A stretch of 64,000 nt of DNA from Bacillota bacterium (GCA_016280895.1 JAEEHM010000112.1:6713-70712), one strand, 5' to 3'. Numbered from the stretch's first letter, positions 10,455 through 39,898 are shown. Made by a program: numbers and translations. The notes: a model not told the origin generated them from the letters alone.

Positions 10455-10710
10455 ATTAAAGCGTTGATGAGAAGAGTACATTAGTTACTTTGATAAAGAG
10501 AGAAGTAGTTTGGTGCGATACTTCACGAAGCCTAATGGAAAGTAATCTCGGAGCTGAATGTAATTCATAAGCATTCCGCGGGGAGATATTTAGAGCACGG
10601 CGATACAGTGTAAAAGAAGGAAAATAAATGTAAATTTATTTTTGAATTAAGGTGGTACCACGATTTTATTCGTCCTTAAAAGTAGTTTAATACTTTTAGG
10701 GACTTTTTTT
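10455..10710 (+). promoter_or_regulatory. T-box leader (tRNA-Val specifier) with terminator
   Basis: Stem I elements are present: an AGAGA box and the distal loop GGTGCGA. The candidate specifier is GUA followed by A (10542-10545). The T-box motif AATTAAGGTGGTACCACG lies at 10646-10662. A terminator GTCCTTAAAAGTA / TACTTTTAGGGAC with T7 lies at 10672-10710. Confidence 0.9.
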
Positions 10711-10736: not shown

Positions 10737-13370
10737 ATGGCAAAATTAAAAGATTTAGAAACTAAGTATGACTTTAAAAAAGTCGAAGATGGCAAATATG
10801 AAAAATGGCTTGAAGGTGGATATTTTTCTTGTGGAGATATTAGCAAAACTCCATACACAATTGTAATCCCTCCACCAAATATTACCGGTAAATTACATAT
10901 TGGTCACGTACTAGATAATACATTACAAGACATCATTATTAGAAGAAAAAGAATGATGGGTTTTGATACGCTATATTTACCTGGTATGGACCATGCAAGT
11001 ATTGCGACTCAAGCCAAGGTTGAACAAATGTTGCGTCAAGATGGCATTTCTCGTTATGATTTAGGTCGAGATAAATTCTTAAAGGAATGTTGGAAATGGA
11101 AAGATGATCATGCTCATATTATCCACGAACAATGGAAGAAATTAGGTCTTAGTTTAGATTATTCAAGAGAAAGATTTACCTTAGATGAAGGTTTAAATAG
11201 AGCTGTTAATGAAGTATTTGTGAAGATGTATAAAGAAGGCTTGATTTATCGTGGTGAGAAAATCATCAACTGGGATATACAAGCAAAAACTGCTCTTTCT
11301 AATATTGAAGTTGAATATAAGGATTTAGAAGGTGCCTTCTATCATATCATTTATCCACTTACTGATGGATCTGGTTCTTTAGAGATTGCGACTACTAGGC
11401 CAGAAACAATGTTTGCTGACCAAGCATTGATGGTACATCCTGATGATGAAAGATATCAAAAATATATCGGTAAGGAAGTAAGAATACCTTTAACTGATAT
11501 AATCATTCCTGTTATTAGTGATGCTTATGTAGAAAAAGATTTTGGAACAGGTGTTGTTAAGGTAACACCTGCCCATGATCCTAATGACTTTGAAGTAGGT
11601 ATCAGACATAATTTAGCTCGTCCATTATGTATGACAGAAGATGGTAAGATGAACAAGATGGCTGGTATTTATGAAGGCATGGACCGTCTTGAATGTCGTG
11701 ATAAATTAGTAGAAGACCTAAAGAAGGAAGGCTACTTAATTAAAATTGAAAAATTAATGCATTCAGTTGGTCATAGTGAAAGAACTGGTGTTATTGTTGA
11801 ACCTAGACTTTCTAAACAATGGTTTGTTAAAATGAAGCCACTTGCTGATGCTGTAATTGAAATGCAGAAGAATAAGGATGAAAAAGTTAATTTCTTCCCA
11901 GCAAGATTTGAAAATACCTTCTTACAATGGCTTGAAAATATCCAAGATTGGTGCATTAGCCGTCAACTTTGGTGGGGTCACCAAATCCCTGCTTGGTATA
12001 AAAAGGTAGATGGTAAGGAAGAAGTATATGTTGGAACAAGTGCACCTGATGGTGAGGGCTGGGTAAGAGATGAAGATGCTCTTGATACATGGTTCTCAAG
12101 TGCTTTATGGCCTTTTTCAACATTAGGCTGGCCTGATAAGACAGAAGATTTAGAAAGATTCTTCCCTGGAGATACCTTAGTAACTGGTTATGATATTATT
12201 TTCTTCTGGGTTGCAAGAATGGTATTCCAATCAAAGTACTTAACAGGAAAACGTCCATTTAAGAATGTATTGATTCACGGAATTATCAGAGATGAATTGG
12301 GTCGTAAAGTATCTAAATCATTAGGTAATGGTGTTGATATCATGGATGCATTCAATAAATATGGTGTTGATGCTGTTCGTTATTTCATCACTACAACTGG
12401 AGCTCCTGGTCAAGATTTGCGTTATAGCGATGAAAAGCTAGAAGCTACTTGGAATTACATCAATAAGATTTGGAATATTTCTCGTTATATTGGTCTTCAA
12501 TTAGATCAAAATAATTATAATAATGAAGAAATTGATATTAAGAAATTAAATACAGTCGATAAATGGATTTTAACAAGACTTAATGAAGTAATTAAGAATG
12601 CTGACATCAATTTTGAAAAATATGAATTTGGTGAAGTAGCTAAGGAATTATATAATTTCGTATGGAATGATTTTGCATCTTGGTACTTAGAGATGACAAA
12701 GGTTGTATTAAATAGTGATTCAACAAATAAAGCTGATAAGATTAATACTTGTGCAGTACTAGTATATGTACTTCGTGCAATATTAAAATTATTACATCCA
12801 TTTATTCCATTTGTTACTGAAGATATTTATCAAATGTTTAATGATGGAAGTATTGTAGTATCTGATTGGCCTAAATTTAAAGAAGAATACAATTTCAAAG
12901 AAGCAATGGATATTCAAATTGTGTATGATATCATTACATCTGTAAGAAACACTCGAGCTTTAAAGAATGTATCTATTTCTAAACCAATTGACTTAGTACT
13001 ACAAATTAGTGATAAAGACCTACTAACTTTCATTGATAATAATAAACATTACTTACAAAGATTTACTAATTATCAAAACTTATTATTAACAATGGATAAA
13101 TATGATACTAATAAATGTCAAGTATCAGTACTTCATAAGGTAAATGTAATTATTCCTTTAAATACTTTAGTAAATCTAGAAGAAGAAAAAGCAAAATTAG
13201 AATTAGAAAAGGCTAATATGTTAAATGAAATCAAGCGTTGTGAATCAATGCTTGCAAATCCAGGCTTTGTAGCTAAGGCACCTGAGGCTAAGGTAAATGC
13301 TGAAAAGGAAAAATTAGCTACATACAAGGCTAAATTAGAAGAAATCGAAAAGTTATTAAAAGACTTTTAG
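10737..13370 (+). CDS. valS: Valine--tRNA ligase
   Basis: 877 aa; HIGH motif (LHIGH), KMSKS-like motif (KVSKS), and a C-terminal coiled coil. Confidence 0.97.
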   Translation: MAKLKDLETKYDFKKVEDGKYEKWLEGGYFSCGDISKTPYTIVIPPPNITGKLHIGHVLDNTLQDIIIRRKRMMGFDTLYLPGMDHASIATQAKVEQMLRQDGISRYDLGRDKFLKECWKWKDDHAHIIHEQWKKLGLSLDYSRERFTLDEGLNRAVNEVFVKMYKEGLIYRGEKIINWDIQAKTALSNIEVEYKDLEGAFYHIIYPLTDGSGSLEIATTRPETMFADQALMVHPDDERYQKYIGKEVRIPLTDIIIPVISDAYVEKDFGTGVVKVTPAHDPNDFEVGIRHNLARPLCMTEDGKMNKMAGIYEGMDRLECRDKLVEDLKKEGYLIKIEKLMHSVGHSERTGVIVEPRLSKQWFVKMKPLADAVIEMQKNKDEKVNFFPARFENTFLQWLENIQDWCISRQLWWGHQIPAWYKKVDGKEEVYVGTSAPDGEGWVRDEDALDTWFSSALWPFSTLGWPDKTEDLERFFPGDTLVTGYDIIFFWVARMVFQSKYLTGKRPFKNVLIHGIIRDELGRKVSKSLGNGVDIMDAFNKYGVDAVRYFITTTGAPGQDLRYSDEKLEATWNYINKIWNISRYIGLQLDQNNYNNEEIDIKKLNTVDKWILTRLNEVIKNADINFEKYEFGEVAKELYNFVWNDFASWYLEMTKVVLNSDSTNKADKINTCAVLVYVLRAILKLLHPFIPFVTEDIYQMFNDGSIVVSDWPKFKEEYNFKEAMDIQIVYDIITSVRNTRALKNVSISKPIDLVLQISDKDLLTFIDNNKHYLQRFTNYQNLLLTMDKYDTNKCQVSVLHKVNVIIPLNTLVNLEEEKAKLELEKANMLNEIKRCESMLANPGFVAKAPEAKVNAEKEKLATYKAKLEEIEKLLKDF

Positions 13371-28555: not shown

Positions 28556-29672
28556 ATGCAGTGGCTGTGGTGCAATCATTCAATCAAATGATAGTTTAGC
28601 ACCTGGCTATATTGACAAAGAGGTTCTAGAAAAACACAAGGATGGTAATTTTTATTGTAAGAGATGTTTTGATTTAAAACACTATAATAAAAATGTAATC
28701 CTAAAAATGGATAATGATAAATATCTAGAGAATTTAGAAAAAATCAAAAAAGATAAGGGTTTAATTGTTTATATAGTGGATTTATTTGATTTAGATGGCA
28801 CAATACTAGCAAATATCAATGAGATATACAAAAGTGATAATATCTTACTTGTTGCTAATAAGGTTGATTTATTTTTAAATTCAATTAATTTAAATAATAT
28901 TTATAATTATTTAAGAAGATATTTAAAATCAAGAAATATTAGAGTAAAAGATGTTTTCTTAATGTCAAGCTTTAAAAATGAAGATATTGATTTATTAATT
29001 GAAGAGATTAAGAAAAACAAAGATAATAATCAAAATGTGTACTTTGTTGGTATGACTAATGTTGGAAAGAGTACTATTTTAAATAAGATTATTTATAAAT
29101 ACACAGATGTTGCTGATTTAATTACTGTTTCTAATAATGTGAATACTACTCTTGATAATATTTATATTCCTTTTGATGATAATTCATATTTTGTGGATAC
29201 TCCTGGTATTTTAAATGATCAAAGTATGATTTATTATTTATCAAAAGAATCTTATAAAGCTATTACACCAAGATCTTATATTAGGCCTAAAACATTCCAA
29301 TTAAATAAAGATCAATCTTTATTTGTGGCTGGTTTTGTGAGAATTGATTATTTAGGTAAAGAGGATAATGGTTTTAAAGAAAAGGCATCATTTATTACTA
29401 ATTTCAATAATAGCTTATTAATTCATAGAACAAAAGAAGAAAATGCTGATGTGTTTTATGAGAAGCATAAGGATGATATATTAAAATATCCTGACTCTGA
29501 TGAGAGATTGAAATTAGGTGAATTGAGAAGTGAAATTATTGAAGTGAGTAAGAATACAAAAATCGATTTAGCAATCTTTGGTATTGGTTTTATTTCCATT
29601 TTCGCAAATGGTAAAATTAGAATAACAAGTTTTGAAAATGTAAAATATAGAATAAGAGAGGCAATGATTTAA
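28536..29672 (+). CDS. yqeH: Ribosome biogenesis GTPase YqeH
   Basis: N-terminal zinc finger CSGCGA...CKRCF. Circularly permuted GTPase motifs (NKVDL before GMTNVGKST). Confidence 0.85.
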   Translation: MKNMNIRCSGCGAIIQSNDSLAPGYIDKEVLEKHKDGNFYCKRCFDLKHYNKNVILKMDNDKYLENLEKIKKDKGLIVYIVDLFDLDGTILANINEIYKSDNILLVANKVDLFLNSINLNNIYNYLRRYLKSRNIRVKDVFLMSSFKNEDIDLLIEEIKKNKDNNQNVYFVGMTNVGKSTILNKIIYKYTDVADLITVSNNVNTTLDNIYIPFDDNSYFVDTPGILNDQSMIYYLSKESYKAITPRSYIRPKTFQLNKDQSLFVAGFVRIDYLGKEDNGFKEKASFITNFNNSLLIHRTKEENADVFYEKHKDDILKYPDSDERLKLGELRSEIIEVSKNTKIDLAIFGIGFISIFANGKIRITSFENVKYRIREAMI

Positions 29673-30604
29673 TGAATAAATTCTTTGAATTTGATTACTA
29701 CAAACAAAAACTTTGGGAAAAATATCAAAGCTGTAGTGATGGTACAGCTGAGATGGAAGAAAAAATGAAGGAGAGATTCAATCATAGTATTGGTGTTGTT
29801 GATATGGCTATTGAACTTATTAGAATTCATAATCTTCCCATTGATGAAGAAAAGGCAAAAATATGCGCTATTTTACATGATTATGCTAAATATTGCAGTA
29901 TGGAAGAATTTCAATCAATTAAAGAAGAATTTAATGTCGATGTTGAAGTTATTCCGGAATACAAAAAAGTCCTTCATGCATTACTTGGTGGATATATTGT
30001 GAAAAAAGAATTGGGTATTGAAGATGAAGATATTTTAAAAGCTATTGAAACTCATTCTACCGCAAATTCTAATATGAGCCCCCTTCAAGAAATTATCTAT
30101 CTTGCTGATTGCGTAGAAGCAGGTAGAAGTGGTGAATATTTCGCAAATATCAGAAAGATAGCAAGAAAGAATTATAAAAAAGCGATTGCGATTTTCTTAA
30201 GAGATTGTATTGAAAGAATACTTTCTGATAAGACTAAAAATTTACATCCTTATACTTTAAATGCGTTTGAAGAATATAAGAAATATTTACTTTCTGGTGA
30301 AAATAAATATGAGCAAGTATTAAGTGCACTTGATCATAATTTAATTAAAGAAGTAAAGGTATATGATGTCAGAAATTCAAGTCCATATTTTGAATATATT
30401 ATCGTTGCAACTACTGCATCTAGCCGACAAATGCAAGCCTGCGTTAATTATTTAAAAGATGATTTTGATATAAGAGGTGCTGAGATTGGTGATGCTTGGA
30501 GTTTGATCGATTTAAATGATATAATTGTACATATCTTTAAAGAAGAAGAAAGAGAAAGATATGGAATTGATCGTTTATATGCATCATATCCAGTGGTGAA
30601 ATAA
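29672..30604 (+). CDS. Fusion of a YqeK-type HD phosphohydrolase with ribosome silencing factor RsfS
   Basis: Residues 1-~205 form an HD domain (HSIGV, LHDYAKY, YLADCVEAGR). Residues ~210-310 are RsfS/iojap-like (VKVYDVRNSSPYFEYIIVATTASSRQMQA...DLNDIIVHIF). Confidence 0.8.
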   Translation: MNKFFEFDYYKQKLWEKYQSCSDGTAEMEEKMKERFNHSIGVVDMAIELIRIHNLPIDEEKAKICAILHDYAKYCSMEEFQSIKEEFNVDVEVIPEYKKVLHALLGGYIVKKELGIEDEDILKAIETHSTANSNMSPLQEIIYLADCVEAGRSGEYFANIRKIARKNYKKAIAIFLRDCIERILSDKTKNLHPYTLNAFEEYKKYLLSGENKYEQVLSALDHNLIKEVKVYDVRNSSPYFEYIIVATTASSRQMQACVNYLKDDFDIRGAEIGDAWSLIDLNDIIVHIFKEEERERYGIDRLYASYPVVK

Positions 30605-30605
30605 T

Positions 30606-31634
30606 ATGAAAAAGTTTGTAGGTATTTTATTTATATTTACCTTTTCATTAATACTTTTTGCATGTAAGAAAGTAGATACAGAACTGCTTACCGTGCCTAC
30701 TGAAAAAGTTAATGTTAATTTCAGCATTGCTGATTTTAATTTAGTGAATGATGAAGGTAAGGAATGGGTTTCTTTTAATGTAATAGCAGAAACAAGTGTT
30801 CAATTAAATGTTGAATTTGATTTATCATATGTTTATTATCATGAACAAGGTGCTTATATTGATGCTTCTTTAACATCACTTGCTAGCTTTGATGGAAGGA
30901 TTAATAGAGGAACTAATCTTTTAGATTTTAAAATTGAATTAAAAGAAGAAAATTATGATGATTATATTTACATTAAGTTAGAAAATAATAGTGATAAATA
31001 TAATTATATTATCTTCAAAATGGTAGATAAAAGCCTTATATCAATTGCACTTGATGTTTTAAGTAAGGATGCTAATAATGAAATTGCTAAAAAGATAGAT
31101 GATACAATCAATACTATTGATGTATCTTCAATTGAAATGAGCATTGATTATGATAATAAAAAAGTGCAAGCCTTAGGTGCTGGTTATGTATTGAATGCTG
31201 ATTTTAGTGATGATTATATTATTGTTGAAATTGTGTTTAGTTCTAAGGCACATTTAACAAATGATTTTGATAAATTAGCAATTAAAGTTAATAATGAAAG
31301 TGCTAAAGGTAATTTATATATTGATAATAATAAATATTATTACAAAGAAGAAGTTGAAAAAACAAATACTGATGTTATTATCAATTCTATTTCTTTAACA
31401 TTTGATTATCTAAAGCATTCAGAAGAAATTAAGAAAGCAGAATACACTGCATTAATGAGTAATCCTGAATATAATAAGATTACAATTACTATTACTTTAA
31501 ATAGTGGATATGTATTTTCTTCTGATTTATCTTTAACAATTAATGATAAAAATATCGATAAATCTTTATATAAAATTGATAATAGTGTACTAACTTATAT
31601 CTTTGATGATCCTAATTGGAGTGGTTTCTATTAA
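30606..31634 (+). CDS. Lipoprotein of unknown function
   Basis: Lipobox LFAC. No recognisable domains. Confidence 0.55.
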   Translation: MKKFVGILFIFTFSLILFACKKVDTELLTVPTEKVNVNFSIADFNLVNDEGKEWVSFNVIAETSVQLNVEFDLSYVYYHEQGAYIDASLTSLASFDGRINRGTNLLDFKIELKEENYDDYIYIKLENNSDKYNYIIFKMVDKSLISIALDVLSKDANNEIAKKIDDTINTIDVSSIEMSIDYDNKKVQALGAGYVLNADFSDDYIIVEIVFSSKAHLTNDFDKLAIKVNNESAKGNLYIDNNKYYYKEEVEKTNTDVIINSISLTFDYLKHSEEIKKAEYTALMSNPEYNKITITITLNSGYVFSSDLSLTINDKNIDKSLYKIDNSVLTYIFDDPNWSGFY

Positions 31635-31670
31635 AATTTTCTTAAATTTTGTTAAATTTTAAATTTATTC

Positions 31671-31699
31671 TTGACAAATATTGTAATATAGGTTAAAAT
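31671..31699 (+). promoter_or_regulatory. sigmaA promoter driving the riboswitch leader
   Basis: TTGACA (31671-31676), 17 nt spacer, TAAAAT (31694-31699). Confidence 0.7.
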
Positions 31700-31711
31700 A
31701 TGTTTGTAAGA

Positions 31712-31778
31712 GGTAATGGGCAAAGCAGGGGAGACCTTGTGACGCAAAGCTATAGGGCCTGAAAAGGTAGCCAGTTGC
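31712..31778 (+). promoter_or_regulatory. c-di-GMP-I (GEMM-I) riboswitch aptamer 1
   Basis: GGGCAAAGC; a hairpin CAGGG-GAGA-CCTTG with a GNRA loop; GACGCAAAGC; GGGCCT...GGTAGCCAGTTGC. This matches the conserved GEMM-I core. Confidence 0.85.
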
Positions 31779-31844
31779 AAAATGGGCAAAGCATGGGAAA
31801 CTATGTGACGCAAAGCTATAGGACCTGAAATGGTAGCCAGTTGC
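31779..31844 (+). promoter_or_regulatory. c-di-GMP-I (GEMM-I) riboswitch aptamer 2
   Basis: A second copy 66 nt downstream, with the same conserved blocks. Its hairpin CATGG-GAAA-CTATG shows compensatory changes relative to aptamer 1. Confidence 0.85.
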
Positions 31845-31865
31845 ATAAAGCAATTGGCTTTTTTT
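31836..31865 (+). terminator. Riboswitch expression platform: intrinsic terminator
   Basis: Stem GCCAGTTGC / GCAATTGGC (9 bp, one G-U), loop ATAAA, then T7. The 5' arm is the 3' end of aptamer 2. Confidence 0.8.
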
Positions 31866-31882
31866 GTTTATTAGGTGATATT

Positions 31883-32671
31883 ATGAGAAAAAAAATAATT
31901 TTGTCCATAATTAGTATTATATTGACTGGCTTTTGCTTGGTTACATTAACATATTCGTGGTTTGCGTTTAATGATACAGTTCAAACTACTGGTATGACAA
32001 TTAGTGTTAAGGGAGCTGATGATATTTTTATCGAAGAGTTCCATATTTATAAGCGAGATCAGGAAAATAATGCTATCGAAGAAGTTTCAAATAATATAAC
32101 AGATGATCCTTTATACAATAAACCTGTTAGTTTAAATCCTTATGATACAATCATTAAAGAAAGAAATGTTGGAACACATATTGTTATTTCAATTTTGGTT
32201 AAAAATATTCAATTAGGAAAAACAATTAATATTTCTGCTTTTAATAATAACGCGATATCAACAGAAGATAGATTTGAACCATTAGGTAACTATTTGTCTA
32301 ATATTAGTGGATTCCGTTGCCGTTGTGGTCAATCAAGCGACACAATTGAAACTGCATTTGGTTCATTTACTGATGAAGAAATAAATAGCTTTGTAAGTGT
32401 AAGTACTATTGATGATGGAGAACATCAATGGGAAAATTCTAAATTATCAACACTCATTATGACTTTAAGTAATTATGATGATAAAGTATTTTATGAAGAA
32501 GGCTCAACATCTCCACAACTTAGAGTATATATAGAATTATCTTACAATGAAGAATTAGTTACTGCTTATTTGAATCAAAATGGTTCATCTACAGACTTTG
32601 GTTCCGTTTTAGAAAATGAAGTTCATTTTACAAATGACTTATTACCATTCTTATTTGAATATTCGAATTAA
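31883..32671 (+). CDS. TasA/camelysin-like secreted protein with a SipW-type signal sequence
   Basis: SD sequence AGGTGA upstream of the ATG at 31883. The N-terminus MRKKIILSIISIILTGFCLVTLTYSWFAFNDTV resembles the B. subtilis TasA signal/N-terminus (...GGGTWAAFND). Confidence 0.6.
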   Translation: MRKKIILSIISIILTGFCLVTLTYSWFAFNDTVQTTGMTISVKGADDIFIEEFHIYKRDQENNAIEEVSNNITDDPLYNKPVSLNPYDTIIKERNVGTHIVISILVKNIQLGKTINISAFNNNAISTEDRFEPLGNYLSNISGFRCRCGQSSDTIETAFGSFTDEEINSFVSVSTIDDGEHQWENSKLSTLIMTLSNYDDKVFYEEGSTSPQLRVYIELSYNEELVTAYLNQNGSSTDFGSVLENEVHFTNDLLPFLFEYSN

Positions 32672-32698: not shown

Positions 32699-33330
32699 AT
32701 GAGAAAATTGACTATATTAAGACATATAATTTCGCTAATGCTGATAGTTGTATTAGGATTCACTATTACTTATTCATGGTTTGCGAGAAGCAATAATATT
32801 GACCCACAATTAAGTGATGCAACTATCATTAAACAGTATTTCCATACTGGTTCAGGTACAGAAGAAGATCCATTTGTAATTACACGTCCTGTTCATTATT
32901 ATAATCTTGTTCAATTATTCCAAAGAACAAGTGGATTTGCGGTAGATGGTGATTCTTCAAAAGTATATTATTTCCAATTAGGTTATGAACTTGATAATAC
33001 AAGTGAAGGCTTGGAGTTTTATAATTATGATGATGATGGTAACCAAATTAATACATCTGGTAATAAATATTCTAAAGAATTGAACTTGGAATTCTATAAT
33101 GGAGACAATGCTTTACTTCCTATTGGAACTAGTGATATACCATTTAATGATGTCTTTAATGGAAGTGGATTAACTGTTAAGAATCTACATGTAAAAGCAA
33201 CTGAAACAGTTGGTGATGTTACATTTGGTACTGCAGATATAGGTATTTTTGGTTTTGTAACAGAAGAAGCATCAATATCAAATGTATATTATTCTAATTT
33301 TGATATTGATTTAACCGGTACAGATTATAC
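32699..33330 (+). repeat. Near-identical ~630 bp block, copy A (5' end of the 755 aa gene)
   Basis: Hand alignment to 35102-35733 gives roughly 95% nucleotide identity, while the rest of the two genes is strongly diverged. Confidence 0.85.
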
Positions 33331-34966
33331 AAGAACAGTAAGTAGTCATAATATAGATGTTCATGATACTAATGATACTGGAACTGCTGATGTTGTTTAT
33401 GTTGGATACGTTGCTGGCCATATCGTTGACGCTACATGCTTTAGCAATTTCTACATTAATAGCTGTGAAATAATTGGCCAAACTTCTAGTTTTAGAAGTG
33501 ATTGGGGTTATTTTGGCTATTGTGAGAATGCAGAAACAATTGACGAATTTATAGAAAGAATTAATGGAGGACAAGGCTCTGATGCTGGTTGGGGTGGTTC
33601 ATTTATTTCGAAAGATTATACTGCATTAGCATATTCTATTCGCCCAAATAACACAGGGACTTGGACAAAACAAGAGTCAGGCCCAGGAGGATATAATATG
33701 TCATTCACAGCATCTTCTGGCAATAATCCGAACAATTATGGAATTGTATATCGGTTAAGAGATGGCTCTTATGTTCCTCTAAAATTTAATAATGATGGAA
33801 AATCTGATATGATGAACACTGGTTATTTAGTTGGAAGCAATGTAAATAATACAGGAGTTAATGCTTCACCAAAAATTTCATCATATAGATTAGTAAATAT
33901 TGGCAATGCTTTAAGTGATACTGCATACAATGATATGCAAAAAACATATTCGACAAGCACTGCAAATATTACATATACTGATAATAAATTGGAAGTTTTG
34001 ACTTACTACAATGGACAATGGGTAAGAATACAAGATGAACACAATTCAGGTAACAATACTAAAAATTCTTTAATTAAAAATTATAGTAGAGTTTCGGTCG
34101 AAAATTTAAACTTTGTTAAATATAATGATTCGCGTAATGCGTTACAAGAATTAATGACAGACCAAAGTTATGTGCATGGAATACATTTTGACAATAATCA
34201 AGTTAGTATTTCTAATTTGTTGACAATTCCTGCTAACACTGCAAGAATTAACGGTATACAATATGATACAACCTATCAAGTTCCTAAAGGCTCAATTAAT
34301 TTTAATTTAAAAGAGTCGGGCGTTATAAATTTCTTTGCTGGAACTTACAATTCATCGAATGTTGATCTGAATTTCTTCTCCTTATATGAAATTACTAGAA
34401 ATGGTGGTAATATAAGTAAAATAAAAGAAATTGTAGAAATATTTCAAGATGCCGATGACAATACCAAGAAAGTATATAAGTATTCTGATAATACTTATTC
34501 AGCTGGAAGAAGAGGTGCATCAGTATTTAATGTTTCTACAATCTTAAAGGGAGTTGCGCCTGTAAAAAACATGCTTTATTATTTTGAATTGCCAGTTAAT
34601 TCTGGAGAATATGCAATGGGTGTTGCTGGCTCAACACAGGGCGCATATATGGTATATCTTGATTTGTGCGCAAATGCTAATAATAGTAATCCTGAACAAA
34701 TTGTTGTTGACAATTTTGCAACAGTCGAATATCGTTCTGCAAGTGACACAATTGAAAACAACATTTTGATATTGACATTCAATCAAAATAGTAACTTAAA
34801 TGTATCTGTAAAAGTTGTATTTGATAAAGAAGAAAATTGTTATAGTATTTTTACTAGTGCTAATATACCTATTACAGTTACGATACTAGATAGTAATTAT
34901 ACATATAAATTTAATAATATCACTATTTCATCCGAAGTAGGGTCTTATACGATAACATCCCCTTAG
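32699..34966 (+). CDS. Large secreted protein with a SipW-type signal, a GLUG-like beta-helical region and a conserved C-terminal module
   Basis: N-terminus ...LGFTITYSWFARSNN; GSGTEEDPFVITRPVHYYNL; FNGSGLTVKNLHV...IGIFGFV repeat pattern. The C-terminal module is shared with the 1598 aa paralogue. No LPXTG motif. Confidence 0.6.
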   Translation: MRKLTILRHIISLMLIVVLGFTITYSWFARSNNIDPQLSDATIIKQYFHTGSGTEEDPFVITRPVHYYNLVQLFQRTSGFAVDGDSSKVYYFQLGYELDNTSEGLEFYNYDDDGNQINTSGNKYSKELNLEFYNGDNALLPIGTSDIPFNDVFNGSGLTVKNLHVKATETVGDVTFGTADIGIFGFVTEEASISNVYYSNFDIDLTGTDYTRTVSSHNIDVHDTNDTGTADVVYVGYVAGHIVDATCFSNFYINSCEIIGQTSSFRSDWGYFGYCENAETIDEFIERINGGQGSDAGWGGSFISKDYTALAYSIRPNNTGTWTKQESGPGGYNMSFTASSGNNPNNYGIVYRLRDGSYVPLKFNNDGKSDMMNTGYLVGSNVNNTGVNASPKISSYRLVNIGNALSDTAYNDMQKTYSTSTANITYTDNKLEVLTYYNGQWVRIQDEHNSGNNTKNSLIKNYSRVSVENLNFVKYNDSRNALQELMTDQSYVHGIHFDNNQVSISNLLTIPANTARINGIQYDTTYQVPKGSINFNLKESGVINFFAGTYNSSNVDLNFFSLYEITRNGGNISKIKEIVEIFQDADDNTKKVYKYSDNTYSAGRRGASVFNVSTILKGVAPVKNMLYYFELPVNSGEYAMGVAGSTQGAYMVYLDLCANANNSNPEQIVVDNFATVEYRSASDTIENNILILTFNQNSNLNVSVKVVFDKEENCYSIFTSANIPITVTILDSNYTYKFNNITISSEVGSYTITSP

Positions 34967-35101: not shown

Positions 35102-35733
35102 ATGAGAAAATTAAACATTATTAGACACATATTTTCAATTTTACTTTTATTAGTATTAGGCTTTTCTGTGACTTATTCATGGTTTGCAAGAAGCAATAAT
35201 ATTGATCCACAATTAAGTGATGCAACTATCATCAAACAGTATTTCCATACTGGTTCAGGTACAGAAGAAGATCCATTTGTAATTACACGTCCTGTTCATT
35301 ATTATAATCTTGTTCAATTATTCCAAAGAACAAGTGGATTTGCGGTAGATGGTGATGCATCAAAAGTATATTATTTCCAATTAGGTTATGAACTTGATAA
35401 TACAAGTGAAGGCTTAGAATTTTATAATTATGACGATGATGGAAACCAAATTAATACTTCTGGTAATAAATATTCTAAAGAGCTGAACCTAGAATTTTAT
35501 AATGGTTCTAATGCATTACTTCCAATTGGAACTAGTGATATACCATTTAATGATGTCTTTAATGGAAGTGGATTAACTGTTAAGAATCTACATGTAAAAG
35601 CAACTGAAACTGTTGGTGATGTTACATTTGGAACTGCAGATATAGGTATTTTTGGTTATGTAACAGAAGAAGCATCAATATCAAATGTATATTATTCTAA
35701 TTTTGATATTGATTTAACTGGTACAGATCCAAC
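35102..35733 (+). repeat. Near-identical ~630 bp block, copy B (5' end of the 1598 aa gene)
   Basis: See copy A. Confidence 0.85.
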
Positions 35734-38700
35734 TAGAACTGTTAGTGGTCATAATTCTGATGTACATGATAGTGATAATAATCACACTGCTGATTTAGTA
35801 TATGTAGGTTATATTGCAGGACATGTTAATTTAGCAACTACTATTTCTAATGTATATATCAATAACTGTAAGATTATTGGTGGAAATGCAGCTAAAAGTA
35901 GCTTTGGTTATTTTGGCTGCGTAGAATCTACTGGTGATGTTGATGTTCCTACTCTTGGTGAATTAATTGCTAATTTGCATACATCTGGCGAAGGAGCAGG
36001 TTTTGGTGGCTCTATCAAGATGAAGGATATACTTGAAAGACTTGTTGCTATTGCAAGTACTAATGTTAGTTCAACAATAACTACATATGGAAATATTGAA
36101 ACAATAACAATTGATGAAAGAAAAAATACACAGGTTTATAATACAGTAAGTACAAAAAATATTACTTATATTGACACTAGTCAATATAATAGAGATGATT
36201 ATCGATATTATAAACACAGTGATTATGATGGACAATACTATTTTATTGACTCATTGTCTGGAGATCATAGATATGAAGGTCTATTTGGAACAAATAGTTT
36301 AAATAAAAAGTCAATTATCACTTTTACATACAAAGATAATGATTTAGATGCTTGGTACATTAAAAATGGTGATACCTATTTATCTGCTAGTAATTTAGCT
36401 TTAGCATCTGCCAATGCTGAAGATCAAGCAGCTAAATGGGTTTATGAAGAGAACAGTGATGGAACATATTATCTTTGCTGCTATTTAGAAACATATACAA
36501 ATGATACAACTGTTAAGTACTATTTGAATAGAAGTGGCAATTATGGCCTTACTATTTCAAATTCTGCATCAACAAAATGGAATTTGACTAATGTTGATTC
36601 AGGTGATAGTTTTACTTCTAAATTATATACTGTTGTAAATGGTGAAAATCGTTATATAGAATATGATTCTAATACTAATACATGGAAATTAGTGCCTTAT
36701 TTATCATATTATATTATTAAACAAGGCGATAACAATTATTTATCTAATAATGGTAGTGACATTATTAATACAACAACTGAAGCTAATGCTATGAGGTTGA
36801 TTTCTTCAACGAATCCATTAACTGATAATAGTGATATATCTTTATACACTATAATTGATAATGAAAAGAAGTATTTAATATGTGATGGCGAATTGAAGAT
36901 TGCTAATAGTCCAACTCAATGGCATTATGCTAATAATGAACTATCAATAACATATTCAAAGGATTCTTTACTTGATATTAAATATATTTTAGGCTATGAT
37001 GGTACCAAATGGGGAGTTTATGCTGTTTCAGGTAAAGTCATTAATGACGGAAATGATCATTACATGACTGTTCAAAATGGTGGCGTTGGTTCGTCTGATG
37101 AATCAAGTGCTAGTTTATGGCAGTTTTCTAATTCAAGCGGTAATACTGCAATTTATACTGTTGTGGATGGAGAAATCAAATATTTGTCATATAGTACAAG
37201 CAAAGGTTTATATTTTGATGACGATTCGTTCGAATGGAAACGTTCAGGCAATATTTTCTATTTTACATCTGGAAATACTGACTATTATTTAGGCTATTCA
37301 AATGGATGGTGTGTACAAAAATTAGATTATCTAGTAATAGGTTCTGACAATAATTATTTACGTGTTACTGGTGTTAATCAATTTGAAAGTACTACACAAG
37401 AAAATGCAACACATTTTTATTCATCTGGTTTAAGTGAATCATCATCAAGTGGAACATTGTATTGTGCAATTAATGGTGCATATTATTACTTAATTAATGA
37501 TAATGGTGCATTATCGACTAGCGATACAACACAAACTACTTGGACATATAATGCAGATGGAGTTCTAAAGAGTGGTAATTATTACATTGATTTAATAGAT
37601 ACTACTTGGACTATTACTCATTTAGCAAACGGAGAAGGATACTACTATTTAATTAGTAGTGGAAACAATTATTTGTCAGCTAATAATACTACTATCGCTA
37701 ATGAAACATCAAAAGCAAGCGCTACTAAGTGGATTTTCAGCAATGATGATGGTAATAATTCTTCAGGCACTATTCGTAATGCAGCGACTACTAATTCGTA
37801 TTTGTATGGCTCTGCAAGTTGGTGGGGTAATGGAACGTTCGAATGTGGAACAACTCAATCATCATGGACTAATAACAATAGAGTTTTATCTGTTGACGGT
37901 GGTGGTGGTTGGTTTTCTTCAACAGGATACATTCGTTTTAATAATAATGCGTGGTCACTAAATACTAATAATGGTACAACATTGACTTTTGAAAGACGTA
38001 CAATTAATGTTAATATAAGCGAAATGGTTGGAGATATTCCTAATGTTTATGAAACTGATGTTACTAGATCATATTCTGTAGATGTTTTAAATAAGAATGT
38101 AAATAGTGATGAAACATTTACAAAAACTTCTCAACAAGAATTTGAAAAATCTGTAAAAGCAAACGTAAATGGTGGCTATGACACTTATTTTCCAATTAAA
38201 ATAGCTGATTCGGACGAAGGTAGTTGGTATGATGCGAGCGATCCTTATAAGGTTTCAATGAAAAATACTGGCTATATTATCGGTGGTGCTCGATTGTATG
38301 ATACTGAACCAAATACATCTGCTTTCCAAACAGGTTTTGGTGATATTCGTATTTCATATTTCCCAATTAGTAATATTTCATCTTCATATGATGATTCTGC
38401 GCTTACTTCATCAAAAATATCTTATAATAACAATTATCTAATATTAAATGATGCTAAAAACGCTGTTGCTAATACAACTGACGAAGAAAATGCTATTTTT
38501 TGGGACTTTACATCTACCGCTACTAATACTTATAGGATTAGTACAGTAATTGATTCTGTTACTTATTATTTAAGATATAATAATGGTTTAACTATCACAA
38601 CTGATCAAGGTGATTCAACAAGTTGGACATATGTTTCAAGTAATAATAGGTTTTATTCTAGAACTGGTAATAATAATAGAGGATATTATATCCAATATAG

Positions 38701-39898
38701 CAATGGTTGGAGTACTACTAATAATATTAACAACCCTGGCAATGCAACAAATTTAACAGTAACTAAGGGTGGTTTTACTACAATCTATACCGTAAATGAT
38801 AATGGACGTACTCAAACTCCAGCTAATACAGATGCATTTAAAGAAGCTAAGAGACAACTTGTTGAAACTTTAAACGGAAGCGCTTCAGTTTATGGACTTC
38901 ATTTTATGAATGCACAAATTTCTAAGGATTACTTGGTTACTGCTCCAAAAGTTGCTGTGTTGGGTAGAGAATTTGATAATTATGAAATGCCACAGGATAG
39001 TATTGATTTCCACGTAATTGATAGAGGTTCAATTAATTTCTTTGCTGGTAATTATTTTGACGGTAATAATACTTTCTTTTCATTACATAAGGTATTTAGA
39101 GACGGAAACAATAAAATTACTGATATTATGGAAATAATTGAAGTATATGAAAAAACAAATGCAAATCAAAACTATATTTACAAATTAAAAGATAGTAGTG
39201 GTAATTATACATTTACAAATGCAGATGGTTCATATACTGGTGCAACATCATTAGCTTCTGGATATAATAGTACTCCAATATTTAAAACATCTTGGATAAC
39301 AAATCCTGGTATTTCTAAAGGATCTCAATTGTATTATTTCGAAGTTCCTTGTAATGCTGGCGAATATTGCTTGGGTTCTGTAACTGGTAAAACTGGTGCA
39401 TATCTTGTATATCTAGATATCGCAAGTAATGGTGGCGAAGCTATTAGTAATGTAATCAGTGCTGAAGGCAATTCAGTCACAAAAGCATTTAATGTTGAAT
39501 ATCGTGATAGACCTGATGCAATAGAAGAAGGCGGACATTCAATTATTCAAATTGGTGCTGATATTCCAACTGGTGCTACAAGCTCTAACTTCTCAATTGA
39601 TGTAAGTTTTGATAGTAGCCAAACTGGTGCCAATAATGAATATGCAAATGGCTTGTATACGATAACAGTCGTTAACAAAACTGGTGCAAATGTTACACTT
39701 GATGTATTTATATGCGATAATAATGATAATGCATTTGATACATTCCCATATGCTTATCGAATAAAATACATCAACGAGTCGCATTCTACGGAAACTACTA
39801 TTCATACTTTAATAACCGATAAGGACTATTTCCAATCAATGGGTTCATTTACAATACCATCGAGTGGAGATGCAGTAGAAAGTTCTTATGTTAGTTAA
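35102..39898 (+). CDS. Giant secreted protein: SipW-type signal, GLUG-like region, about six beta-trefoil-like (x-W) lectin-type modules, and a conserved C-terminal module
   Basis: The first ~205 aa are nearly identical to ORF 32699. Residues ~417-955 and ~1106-1205 carry repeated Y-L-x...(K/Q/L)-W-x-(F/Y) subrepeats. The C-terminal LYYFEVPCNAGEYCLGS...GAYLVYLDI matches LYYFELPVNSGEYAMGV...GAYMVYLDL in the paralogue. Confidence 0.6.
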   Translation: MRKLNIIRHIFSILLLLVLGFSVTYSWFARSNNIDPQLSDATIIKQYFHTGSGTEEDPFVITRPVHYYNLVQLFQRTSGFAVDGDASKVYYFQLGYELDNTSEGLEFYNYDDDGNQINTSGNKYSKELNLEFYNGSNALLPIGTSDIPFNDVFNGSGLTVKNLHVKATETVGDVTFGTADIGIFGYVTEEASISNVYYSNFDIDLTGTDPTRTVSGHNSDVHDSDNNHTADLVYVGYIAGHVNLATTISNVYINNCKIIGGNAAKSSFGYFGCVESTGDVDVPTLGELIANLHTSGEGAGFGGSIKMKDILERLVAIASTNVSSTITTYGNIETITIDERKNTQVYNTVSTKNITYIDTSQYNRDDYRYYKHSDYDGQYYFIDSLSGDHRYEGLFGTNSLNKKSIITFTYKDNDLDAWYIKNGDTYLSASNLALASANAEDQAAKWVYEENSDGTYYLCCYLETYTNDTTVKYYLNRSGNYGLTISNSASTKWNLTNVDSGDSFTSKLYTVVNGENRYIEYDSNTNTWKLVPYLSYYIIKQGDNNYLSNNGSDIINTTTEANAMRLISSTNPLTDNSDISLYTIIDNEKKYLICDGELKIANSPTQWHYANNELSITYSKDSLLDIKYILGYDGTKWGVYAVSGKVINDGNDHYMTVQNGGVGSSDESSASLWQFSNSSGNTAIYTVVDGEIKYLSYSTSKGLYFDDDSFEWKRSGNIFYFTSGNTDYYLGYSNGWCVQKLDYLVIGSDNNYLRVTGVNQFESTTQENATHFYSSGLSESSSSGTLYCAINGAYYYLINDNGALSTSDTTQTTWTYNADGVLKSGNYYIDLIDTTWTITHLANGEGYYYLISSGNNYLSANNTTIANETSKASATKWIFSNDDGNNSSGTIRNAATTNSYLYGSASWWGNGTFECGTTQSSWTNNNRVLSVDGGGGWFSSTGYIRFNNNAWSLNTNNGTTLTFERRTINVNISEMVGDIPNVYETDVTRSYSVDVLNKNVNSDETFTKTSQQEFEKSVKANVNGGYDTYFPIKIADSDEGSWYDASDPYKVSMKNTGYIIGGARLYDTEPNTSAFQTGFGDIRISYFPISNISSSYDDSALTSSKISYNNNYLILNDAKNAVANTTDEENAIFWDFTSTATNTYRISTVIDSVTYYLRYNNGLTITTDQGDSTSWTYVSSNNRFYSRTGNNNRGYYIQYSNGWSTTNNINNPGNATNLTVTKGGFTTIYTVNDNGRTQTPANTDAFKEAKRQLVETLNGSASVYGLHFMNAQISKDYLVTAPKVAVLGREFDNYEMPQDSIDFHVIDRGSINFFAGNYFDGNNTFFSLHKVFRDGNNKITDIMEIIEVYEKTNANQNYIYKLKDSSGNYTFTNADGSYTGATSLASGYNSTPIFKTSWITNPGISKGSQLYYFEVPCNAGEYCLGSVTGKTGAYLVYLDIASNGGEAISNVISAEGNSVTKAFNVEYRDRPDAIEEGGHSIIQIGADIPTGATSSNFSIDVSFDSSQTGANNEYANGLYTITVVNKTGANVTLDVFICDNNDNAFDTFPYAYRIKYINESHSTETTIHTLITDKDYFQSMGSFTIPSSGDAVESSYVS

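Follow-up and report, generated by a model that had tools for sequence, protein, structure and literature searches.

The window, the whole stretch of 64,000 nucleotides that was analysed, contains a promoter, a leader and a three-gene operon on the forward strand, with the housekeeping genes yqeH, yqeK-rsfS and hrcA-grpE-dnaK-dnaJ as neighbours. The leader consists of two c-di-GMP-I (GEMM-I) riboswitch aptamers and a single intrinsic terminator. The features are as follows.

31671-31699, forward strand: sigma-70-type promoter, TTGACA-17-TAAAAT (11 of 12 consensus positions matched)
31715-31780, forward strand: c-di-GMP-I aptamer 1 (58.0 bits with Rfam RF01051, 73.4 bits with our own model)
31769-31778, forward strand: AGCCAGTTGC, 3' strand of aptamer 1, which matches the 5' arm of the terminator exactly and is the predicted alternative partner of its 3' arm
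31781-31846, forward strand: c-di-GMP-I aptamer 2 (59.8 bits with RF01051, 68.9 bits with our own model)
31835-31865, forward strand: intrinsic terminator, the sole expression platform (10 pairs, five of them G-C; −15.1 kcal/mol alone)
31873-31885, forward strand: ribosome-binding site AGGTGA (31873-31878) and ATG of gene 1 (31883), kept in orthologues
31883-32671, forward strand: gene 1, uncharacterised protein of 262 aa with a hydrophobic N-terminal segment followed by TYSWFAFND (no family match)
32699-34966, forward strand: gene 2, predicted exported beta-rich protein of 755 aa from an uncharacterised family (AlphaFold2 model, mean pLDDT 80)
35102-39898, forward strand: gene 3, 1598-aa paralogue of gene 2, by sequence identity
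39905-39937, forward strand: terminator at the end of the operon (12-bp stem, then TTTTT)

This strong promoter ranked second among the sites of an 11-kb scan and the transcript probably starts close to position 31706. The −35 box (CTTGACAAA) is unchanged in two orthologous loci (L091 and L088), in which the −10 box reads TAAAAT or TAATAT; upstream of the −35 box their sequence has diverged from that of the window. The original prediction placed a TTGACA-17-TAAAAT promoter ahead of two 66-nt units, and the sequence from 31671 to 31885 reads accordingly. Transcription from this constitutive-looking promoter would yield a leader of about 175 nt, with the two adjacent aptamers and one intrinsic terminator, and then the three genes.

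Both units belong to the c-di-GMP-I family of Rfam (RF01051), for which the curated gathering score is 35 bits. Unit 2 was found in the Rfam scan of the whole window (31775-31848, E = 3.6e-9) and unit 1 when the segment 31690-31784 was scanned alone (31709-31782, E = 1.4e-11). Each match covers model positions 1-87, and RF01051 outscored the variant families of its clan for both units. The scores of 59.8 and 58.0 bits thus confirm the two GEMM-I aptamers that had been predicted, although unit 1 is listed only when it is scanned apart. The whole-window scan and a permissive scan of 351 nt (31600-31950) list unit 2 alone, because the two full-length matches overlap by 8 nt, all of them unpaired flank, and the lower scorer is dropped. 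Unit 1 is masked in these larger scans, not absent, and a single cmscan run on the locus would wrongly suggest one aptamer only. With our own covariance model, which is free of flanks and describes the core only (68 positions, 17 pairs), the units abut at 31780/31781, and a third match was not found within the 64-kb window. The units are directly adjacent, 66 nt each and 89% identical to each other. The element in the window is a pair of c-di-GMP-I aptamers with a single terminator.

Each unit comprises a P2 helix of 6 bp, the G-C and C-G pairs of GGCAAA...ACGC, the GACGCAAAGC junction and a short P3 helix (4 bp, a bulge, 2 bp, an AG bulge and 3 bp). In aptamer 1, P2 is formed by 31725-31730 with 31735-31740 around a GAGA loop, and P3 by 31748-31759 with 31766-31776. 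The P2 loop of aptamer 2 is GAAA, and both loops are of the GNRA type. Thirteen RF01051 consensus positions at the apex of P3 are deleted in both units, with the lower part of the helix present and paired. A short-range P1 helix was not evident in either aptamer. The units resemble the Vc2 aptamer of Vibrio cholerae and the RF01051 consensus in GGCAAA, the GNRA-capped P2, the junction, P3 and the G, A and C contacts, but differ from them in the shortened P3, the lack of an obvious local P1 and a platform that takes over the 3' strand of P3. Folded alone, aptamer 1 adopts the GEMM-I secondary structure at −16.6 kcal/mol, and aptamer 2 also folds on its own (−13.2 kcal/mol). The sequence CCUGAA(A/U)GG in P3 resembles a collapsed CCUAAG/UAUGG tetraloop receptor.

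The ligand-contacting positions, which we take to be G20, A47 and C92 in the numbering of the Vc2 crystal structure, align to G31719, A31746 and C31778 in unit 1 and to G31785, A31812 and C31844 in unit 2. A G at position 20 favours c-di-GMP and an A favours c-AMP-GMP (PMC9481103); the equivalent position is G, the c-di-GMP state, in both units. The linker from C31778 to G31785 is AAAAUG (6 nt), with neither a T-tract nor a hairpin between the two aptamers.

The terminator 5' arm, AGCCAGTTGC (31835-31844), lies inside aptamer 2 and is the 3' strand of this aptamer, including the C equivalent to the ligand-pairing C92. It is followed by the loop ATAAA, the 3' arm GCAATTGGCT (31850-31859) and a T-run (31859-31865), and can be read either as 10 bp with T6 or as 9 bp with T7. 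The expectation of one terminator only, with its 5' arm borrowed from the closing segment of aptamer 2, holds for 31835-31865. In the orthologues the arms are invariant and the loop is variable. After most related aptamers in homologous loci, the terminator 5' arm is AGCCAG(T/C)TGC, again the aptamer's own 3' strand; with the same overlap of aptamer and terminator found across relatives, the platform of unit 2 is the standard of this clade.

Nearest-neighbour folding gave −38.0 kcal/mol for unit 1 folded together with the terminator, against −27.2 kcal/mol for both aptamers folded and no terminator. The terminator state is thus about 11 kcal/mol more stable without ligand, which makes termination the default. 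Since the 5' arm holds both the C92 equivalent and the 3' strand of P3, ligand binding and the terminator are mutually exclusive, as in an ON switch. When c-di-GMP is absent, aptamer 2 would pair its 3' strand (AGCCAGUUGC) with GCAAUUGGCU, and transcription would stop at the U-tract. Binding of c-di-GMP would keep this strand in the binding pocket and P3, so that no terminator forms and the operon is transcribed. A simple estimate of the ligand binding energy falls short of the gap of about 11 kcal/mol, so that control must be kinetic.

A close described system is Bc3-5, a triple tandem of Bacillus thuringiensis and B. cereus ahead of the cell-surface protein operon cspABCDE (Zhou 2016, PMC4759541). 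There, P1, part of P3 and the C of the binding site are withdrawn from the terminator once ligand binds, and read-through of its Bc4 unit rose with c-di-GMP in reporter assays (PMC4759541). Bc3-5 thereby switches ON through anti-termination, and its response is more digital than that of one unit. In the window, too, aptamer and terminator would compete for part of the 3' strand of P3 and for the C of the binding site. The predicted ON switch matches this design in its logic (PMC4759541), and its direction is well supported by analogy with Bc3-5 and by the folding energies.

Conservation was examined in the orthologous loci and in a wider set of aptamers. Two groups of orthologous loci, L091/L092 and L088-L090 (the latter a 'Bacilli bacterium' MAG), keep two adjacent units and the terminator, with gaps of 1-2 nt. 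The gene 1 product is 82% identical to that of L091/L092 and 76% to that of L088-L090, and synteny extends over yqeH, yqeK-rsfS, a gene for a 338-aa protein, the leader, gene 1 and the large gene. At L093/L094, a more remote relative at 50% identity, a single aptamer precedes a terminator of the same design. Between lineages the units are 88-92% identical, compared to 55-71% at the 4-fold sites of gene 1. The G, A and C at the ligand-contact equivalents are kept in all six orthologous units.

The two units of the window differ at seven of 66 positions, four in stems, one in the GNRA loop and two in a loop or the linker. None of the four stem differences breaks a pair: one pair changes from G.U to U-A, another from G-C to G.U and a third from G.U to A-U, and the loop difference at the tip of P2 preserves the GNRA motif. 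The hairpins CAGGG-GAGA-CCTTG and CATGG-GAAA-CTATG are present as originally described, where their differences were taken as a sign of selection on RNA structure. This view is supported, far more by the orthologues than by the comparison of the two units. Between lineages, both units show compensatory changes, for example at two P2 pairs of unit 1 (G.U, U-A or A-U at one, G-C to C-G at another) and at a pair of unit 2 (C-G to U-A). Across seven orthologous units 100% of the cells are paired, and seven pairs have changes on both sides. In a test on 18 related aptamers from homologous loci that aligned cleanly, 96.2% of the cells were paired, against 19-44% when the partners were slid, and 30 double-change cells were counted against 8.9 in shuffles, none of 500 shuffles scoring as high. 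Within P2, changes on both sides were seen in four of the six pairs across the 18 aptamers and in five of six across the seven orthologous units.

These pairing-preserving changes, together with an identity above that of the 4-fold sites, show both aptamers to be under selection. The lineages also have unit-specific states in common (GGGCC..AAAGG in unit 1, GGACC..AATGG in unit 2), which places the duplication before the split of the lineages, with no homogenisation afterwards. Judged by its substitution pattern, unit 1 is a maintained aptamer and not a decaying copy.

Tandem GEMM-I arrangements had been called rare in the original prediction. This is incorrect: with 347 doublets and 12 triplets, c-di-GMP-I led all riboswitch classes in the survey of Sherlock et al. 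(2022; PMC9481103). The precedent named there from the Bacillus cereus group does not apply to a shared platform either: Bc3-5 was described as 'three complete riboswitches' with one terminator apiece (PMC4759541). Bc3-5 and the window have in common near-identical GEMM-I aptamers in one 5' leader of a Bacillota genome, ahead of a cell-surface operon in the former and of exported proteins here. In the window, unlike in Bc3-5, the aptamers abut with 6 nt between the C92 and G20 equivalents, one terminator is shared and the cargo proteins are unrelated. A platform after each aptamer, as in Bc3-5, is lacking in the window and also in its orthologues.

The surveys of tandem riboswitches deal with the same aptamer class, and they too link it to sharper switching where a binary choice of lifestyle is made (PMC9481103, PMC12452182). 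Sherlock et al. (2022) placed c-di-GMP-I under 'multiple expression platforms, pseudo-cooperative' (PMC9481103). According to Morales & Merino (2025), contiguous c-di-GMP units tend to be complete, with sensor and platform, and adjacent aptamers are typical of glycine riboswitches and of Pseudomonadota (PMC12452182). The window departs from these complete-unit tandems by its adjacent aptamers and single terminator in a Bacillota genome. Its architecture is the dual-aptamer, single-platform type of the tandem glycine riboswitch, in which one platform likewise follows a pair of adjacent, homologous aptamers for a shared ligand, but the aptamer class and the ligand are different.

The layout is not confined to this locus. 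A metagenome collection was scanned for cases in which the end of one aptamer and the start of the next lie within 2-20 nt. The scan returned 47 stretches, resolved into 42 arrays (24 doublets, 11 triplets and seven quadruplets) with gaps of 0-20 nt. Examples are three aptamers with one terminator (L125) and four aptamers with a ribosome-binding site and ATG immediately behind them (L099). Further doublets lacking a terminator between the aptamers are L058 and L079/L080, and L077 is of the classical type with a terminator after every aptamer. The adjacent-aptamer layout is therefore recurrent in nature. Experimental characterisation of adjacent c-di-GMP-I aptamers was not found in the literature examined. 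The locus offers a conserved and clear-cut case from nature in which two c-di-GMP-I aptamers share one terminator, a layout that the surveys ascribe to glycine riboswitches and not to c-di-GMP.

The contribution of aptamer 1, which carries no expression platform of its own, was approached by constraint folding. With aptamer 2 locked, the MFE fold pairs the 3' strand of aptamer 1 (31769-31778) with the terminator 3' arm (31850-31859) in a helix of 10 bp right before the U-tract. At −37.9 kcal/mol, its energy is equal to that of the ordinary terminator state. Locking unit 1 instead leaves the ordinary terminator, and locking both units leaves no helix abutting the U-tract. The same outcome was obtained for the orthologous loci L091 and L088, where the helix has 10-11 bp. 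In the model the long-range helix sits at the P1 position of aptamer 2, which would make it sterically plausible.

When aptamer 2 is occupied and aptamer 1 empty, the terminator 3' arm could thus take the 3' strand of aptamer 1 instead. Read-through would then need both aptamers to be occupied, making the leader an AND gate for one ligand with a steeper dose response. We put this role of aptamer 1 forward as a tentative proposal from constraint folding, possible but short of probable. It offers a simple model in which an aptamer without a platform contributes by competing for the shared terminator arm. If it is true, duplication of an aptamer alone yields a sharper switch in one evolutionary step. 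The helix is not independent evidence of function, because duplicating the conserved 3' strand creates it automatically, and, enclosing a folded insert of 71 nt, it may form too slowly to terminate. In an independent doublet (L079), the 3' strand of aptamer 1 (GCCAGCTGC) is mismatched to the terminator arm and folding gives no long-range helix. The isolated second units of L079 and L058 did not reach the GEMM-I shape by MFE, which renders the locks unreliable in these two loci.

Extended to the longer arrays, the single 3' arm would pair with the AGCCAGYUGC of any unoccupied aptamer, with occupied downstream aptamers looped out. Adjacent c-di-GMP-I aptamers with one terminal platform might then form a distinct recurrent architecture, an N-input AND gate for one ligand, a generalisation that we consider doubtful as yet.

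Aptamer 2 might instead be the only regulator, with aptamer 1 binding c-di-GMP without regulatory output, for instance as a folding chaperone or insulator that keeps the 5' leader from mispairing with aptamer 2, or in protection of the 5' end of the transcript. The absence of a platform after aptamer 1 agrees with this, and the single-aptamer relative L093/L094 evidently works with the same terminator design. Moreover, the unconstrained MFE fold mispairs the two units through the palindromic CUAUAG, and occupancy of aptamer 1 could mainly aid folding. Conservation is, however, no less strict in the binding-site positions and in all the stems of aptamer 1 than in those of aptamer 2, which agrees better with ligand sensing than with a generic structural role, and the recurrence of adjacent arrays of two to four aptamers in unrelated lineages suggests that copy number is useful. 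We regard this explanation as a serious one that is nevertheless improbable.

Cooperativity of tandem glycine riboswitches rests on defined tertiary contacts between the aptamers. True cooperative binding of this kind, with aptamer 2 alone touching the terminator, appears unlikely here. Glycine riboswitches share the layout of a homologous aptamer pair, side by side, ahead of a single platform (PMC9481103), and the linker of the window is short, A-rich and conserved in length (5-8 nt). Yet apart from the alternative helix the aptamers showed neither conserved pairing with each other nor a conserved docking motif, the spacing of 0 to 20 nt in other arrays argues against one fixed geometry, and contiguous c-di-GMP units are treated as independent in the literature (PMC12452182).

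The long-range helix occupies the position of P1, which is stabilised by ligand in canonical GEMM-I aptamers, and matches the ordinary terminator state in stability; ligand on aptamer 2 could then favour termination and produce an OFF or band-pass switch. This is very unlikely, as the ordinary terminator already forms without ligand and sets the default to OFF, Bc3-5, built on this platform design, is an ON switch, and surface and adhesion proteins are usually induced by c-di-GMP. A chance or neutral duplication of DNA without RNA function, for which the 89% identity of the units might speak as if they were recently duplicated, has a negligible probability in view of Rfam E-values of about 1e-11, a duplication that predates three lineages, conservation far above synonymous sites and stem changes that all preserve pairing.

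Sharpening of the response is most likely the reason why aptamer 1 has been retained. The reading as a whole, a promoter, two aptamers and one terminator acting as an ON switch whose response is most likely sharpened by aptamer 1, is one in which we have good confidence.

The operon encodes three proteins with similarly built N-termini: a pair of basic residues, a hydrophobic segment of about 20 residues and TYSWFA(FND/RSN). Gene 3 is 79% identical to gene 2 over the N-terminal 310 aa or so, the first 210 or so being nearly identical, and 31% over the C-terminal 300 aa or so. Searches of Pfam and NCBIfam gave no match for the three proteins, nor for their N-termini at E ≤ 10, and the proteins contain no cell-wall anchor motif or recognisable domains. 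The 'TasA-signal' label attached to them by the original prediction is not upheld: no curated model matched, and the AlphaFold2 model of gene 1, which is of low confidence (mean pLDDT 58), matched neither TasA nor another fold, leaving a likeness by eye only. That likeness is between WFAFND here and WAAFND in TasA. A signal peptidase was not found among the 17 window proteins in a non-exhaustive scan, and a regex scan of the 64-kb window gave no GGDEF, EAL or HD-GYP motif.

The AlphaFold2 model of gene 2 had no PDB match at E < 1e-3, with weak matches to beta-sandwich and carbohydrate-binding-module-like folds only. In sequence searches against the PDB the only match was a marginal one, of a profile of its family to 3n6z, a 'putative immunoglobulin A1 protease', over residues 43-100 (E = 0.023). 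Gene 1 has only nine relatives, all unnamed. For gene 2 the protein collection contains 100 relatives, which are without exception unnamed or 'hypothetical' and belong to uncultured rumen and gut Bacillota. A phage origin of the cargo family was considered and rejected as the main context: tblastn gave no match in 50,697 phage records, IMG/VR contained only three loci, and the neighbours in the window are housekeeping genes.

A scan of one genome per species yielded 78 homologous loci. Rfam found GEMM-I in 11 of 12 gene 2-family loci tested, and our own covariance model located 67 aptamers in the 78 loci. Among the homologous loci without a GEMM-I hit, the ten that were checked contained no other Rfam riboswitch. 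In 46 of the 78 a same-strand GEMM-I aptamer lies upstream of the gene 2 relative, mostly at 780-1100 nt, with one small gene between the aptamer and the large gene. This recurrence defines riboswitch, small gene and large gene as a conserved unit. The GEMM-I link and the predicted export signals of the proteins suggest a surface, matrix or adhesion role for the cargo, and the frequency of GEMM-I upstream points to c-di-GMP control of such a surface or adhesion function in these uncultured organisms. The locus thus combines a known riboswitch class, arranged in a layout that recurs but has been little described, with a widespread uncharacterised protein family, and ties c-di-GMP signalling to large, beta-rich, predicted exported proteins that are widespread in uncultured rumen and gut Bacillota.

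The ligand-contacting position G20 (Vc2 numbering) distinguishes c-di-GMP-selective from c-AMP-GMP-responsive c-di-GMP-I (GEMM-I) aptamers. Upstream of the genes for the gene 2 protein family (loci L001-L078), 35 out of 67 aptamers carry A instead of G at the equivalent position, and in both units of the window this position is G. One aptamer of the family, in L003 (9055-9130), matches the c-di-GMP-I-GGC variant RF03167 with 59.9 bits.

Adjacent aptamers are not limited to doublets among the loci studied, as illustrated by two arrays:
L125, 5144-5420: three adjacent GEMM-I aptamers, with one terminator after the third.
L099, 95-414: four adjacent GEMM-I aptamers, on a metagenome contig of ~60% GC.

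In L125, aptamers 1 and 2 both have a 3′ strand (AGTTGCC) that perfectly complements the 3′ arm of the terminator (GGCAACT); pairing of this arm with the own strand of aptamer 3 (AGTTGTC) requires a G.U pair. Triplets with a lone terminator behind the third aptamer were also observed in L119, L126, L098, L116, L133, L137 and L140. The gaps between the aptamers of these single-terminator triplets, L125 included, are 5-20 nt.

No terminator was found throughout the four-aptamer array of L099, and GGGAG and the ATG of a gene for a signal-peptide protein lie directly 3′ of it. Four-aptamer arrays were likewise seen in L109, L114, L117, L120, L123 and L144, on metagenome contigs of ~60% GC; in all seven loci the gaps between aptamers are only 1-3 nt. 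The tandem-riboswitch surveys consulted here (PMC9481103, PMC12452182) report only doublets and triplets. Another four aptamers, within 520 nt, result from the repetition of a ~330-nt block in L077 (100-760), a locus of the gene 2 family. The block consists of a promoter, an aptamer plus terminator and a second aptamer, which in one copy ends abruptly after GCAGCC. The repetition may be genuine or may stem from the assembly.

Genes 2 and 3 (window 32699-34966 and 35102-39898) are paralogues, almost identical in their first ~210 residues, with an identity of 79% across 311 aa but 31% in the C-terminal ~300 aa. In the orthologous loci L088 and L090, gene 1 is directly followed by a ~1585-aa gene. 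Based on this identity pattern and gene order, gene 2 appears to be an insertion specific to this lineage, with gene conversion at the N-terminal end. The closest relatives of gene 2 show 53-59% identity, adjoin genes with phage-like Pfam matches and still have GEMM-I upstream; this was seen at the following loci:
L085, 7578-8294.
L086, 5515-6231.
L079, 1-106 and 9893-10139.

The phage-like Pfam matches are Phage_T4_gp13, GIY-YIG, RNase H and Metallophos. The gene 2 family had no match among 50,697 phage records, and a search of IMG/VR placed it at only three loci.

Over its first ~40 residues (MRKKIILSIISIILT.FCLVTLT(Y/F)SWFAFND; window 31883-31990), the gene 1 product is near-identical to the proteins P0105-P0109, versus only ~30% identity over the rest of the protein. 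Such conservation is unusual in a signal peptide and hints at a function of the N-terminus beyond export.

Three further features were located in the window:
10455-10680: T-box leader (RF00230, 107 bits), directly upstream of the next gene.
10737-13370: valyl-tRNA synthetase gene.
29672-30604: one 310-aa ORF joining a YqeK-type HD domain (Ap4A hydrolase) to the ribosome silencing factor RsfS.

A T-box ahead of a valyl-tRNA synthetase gene is an ordinary arrangement. The YqeK-RsfS fusion is likewise found in the syntenic loci L088 and L089.
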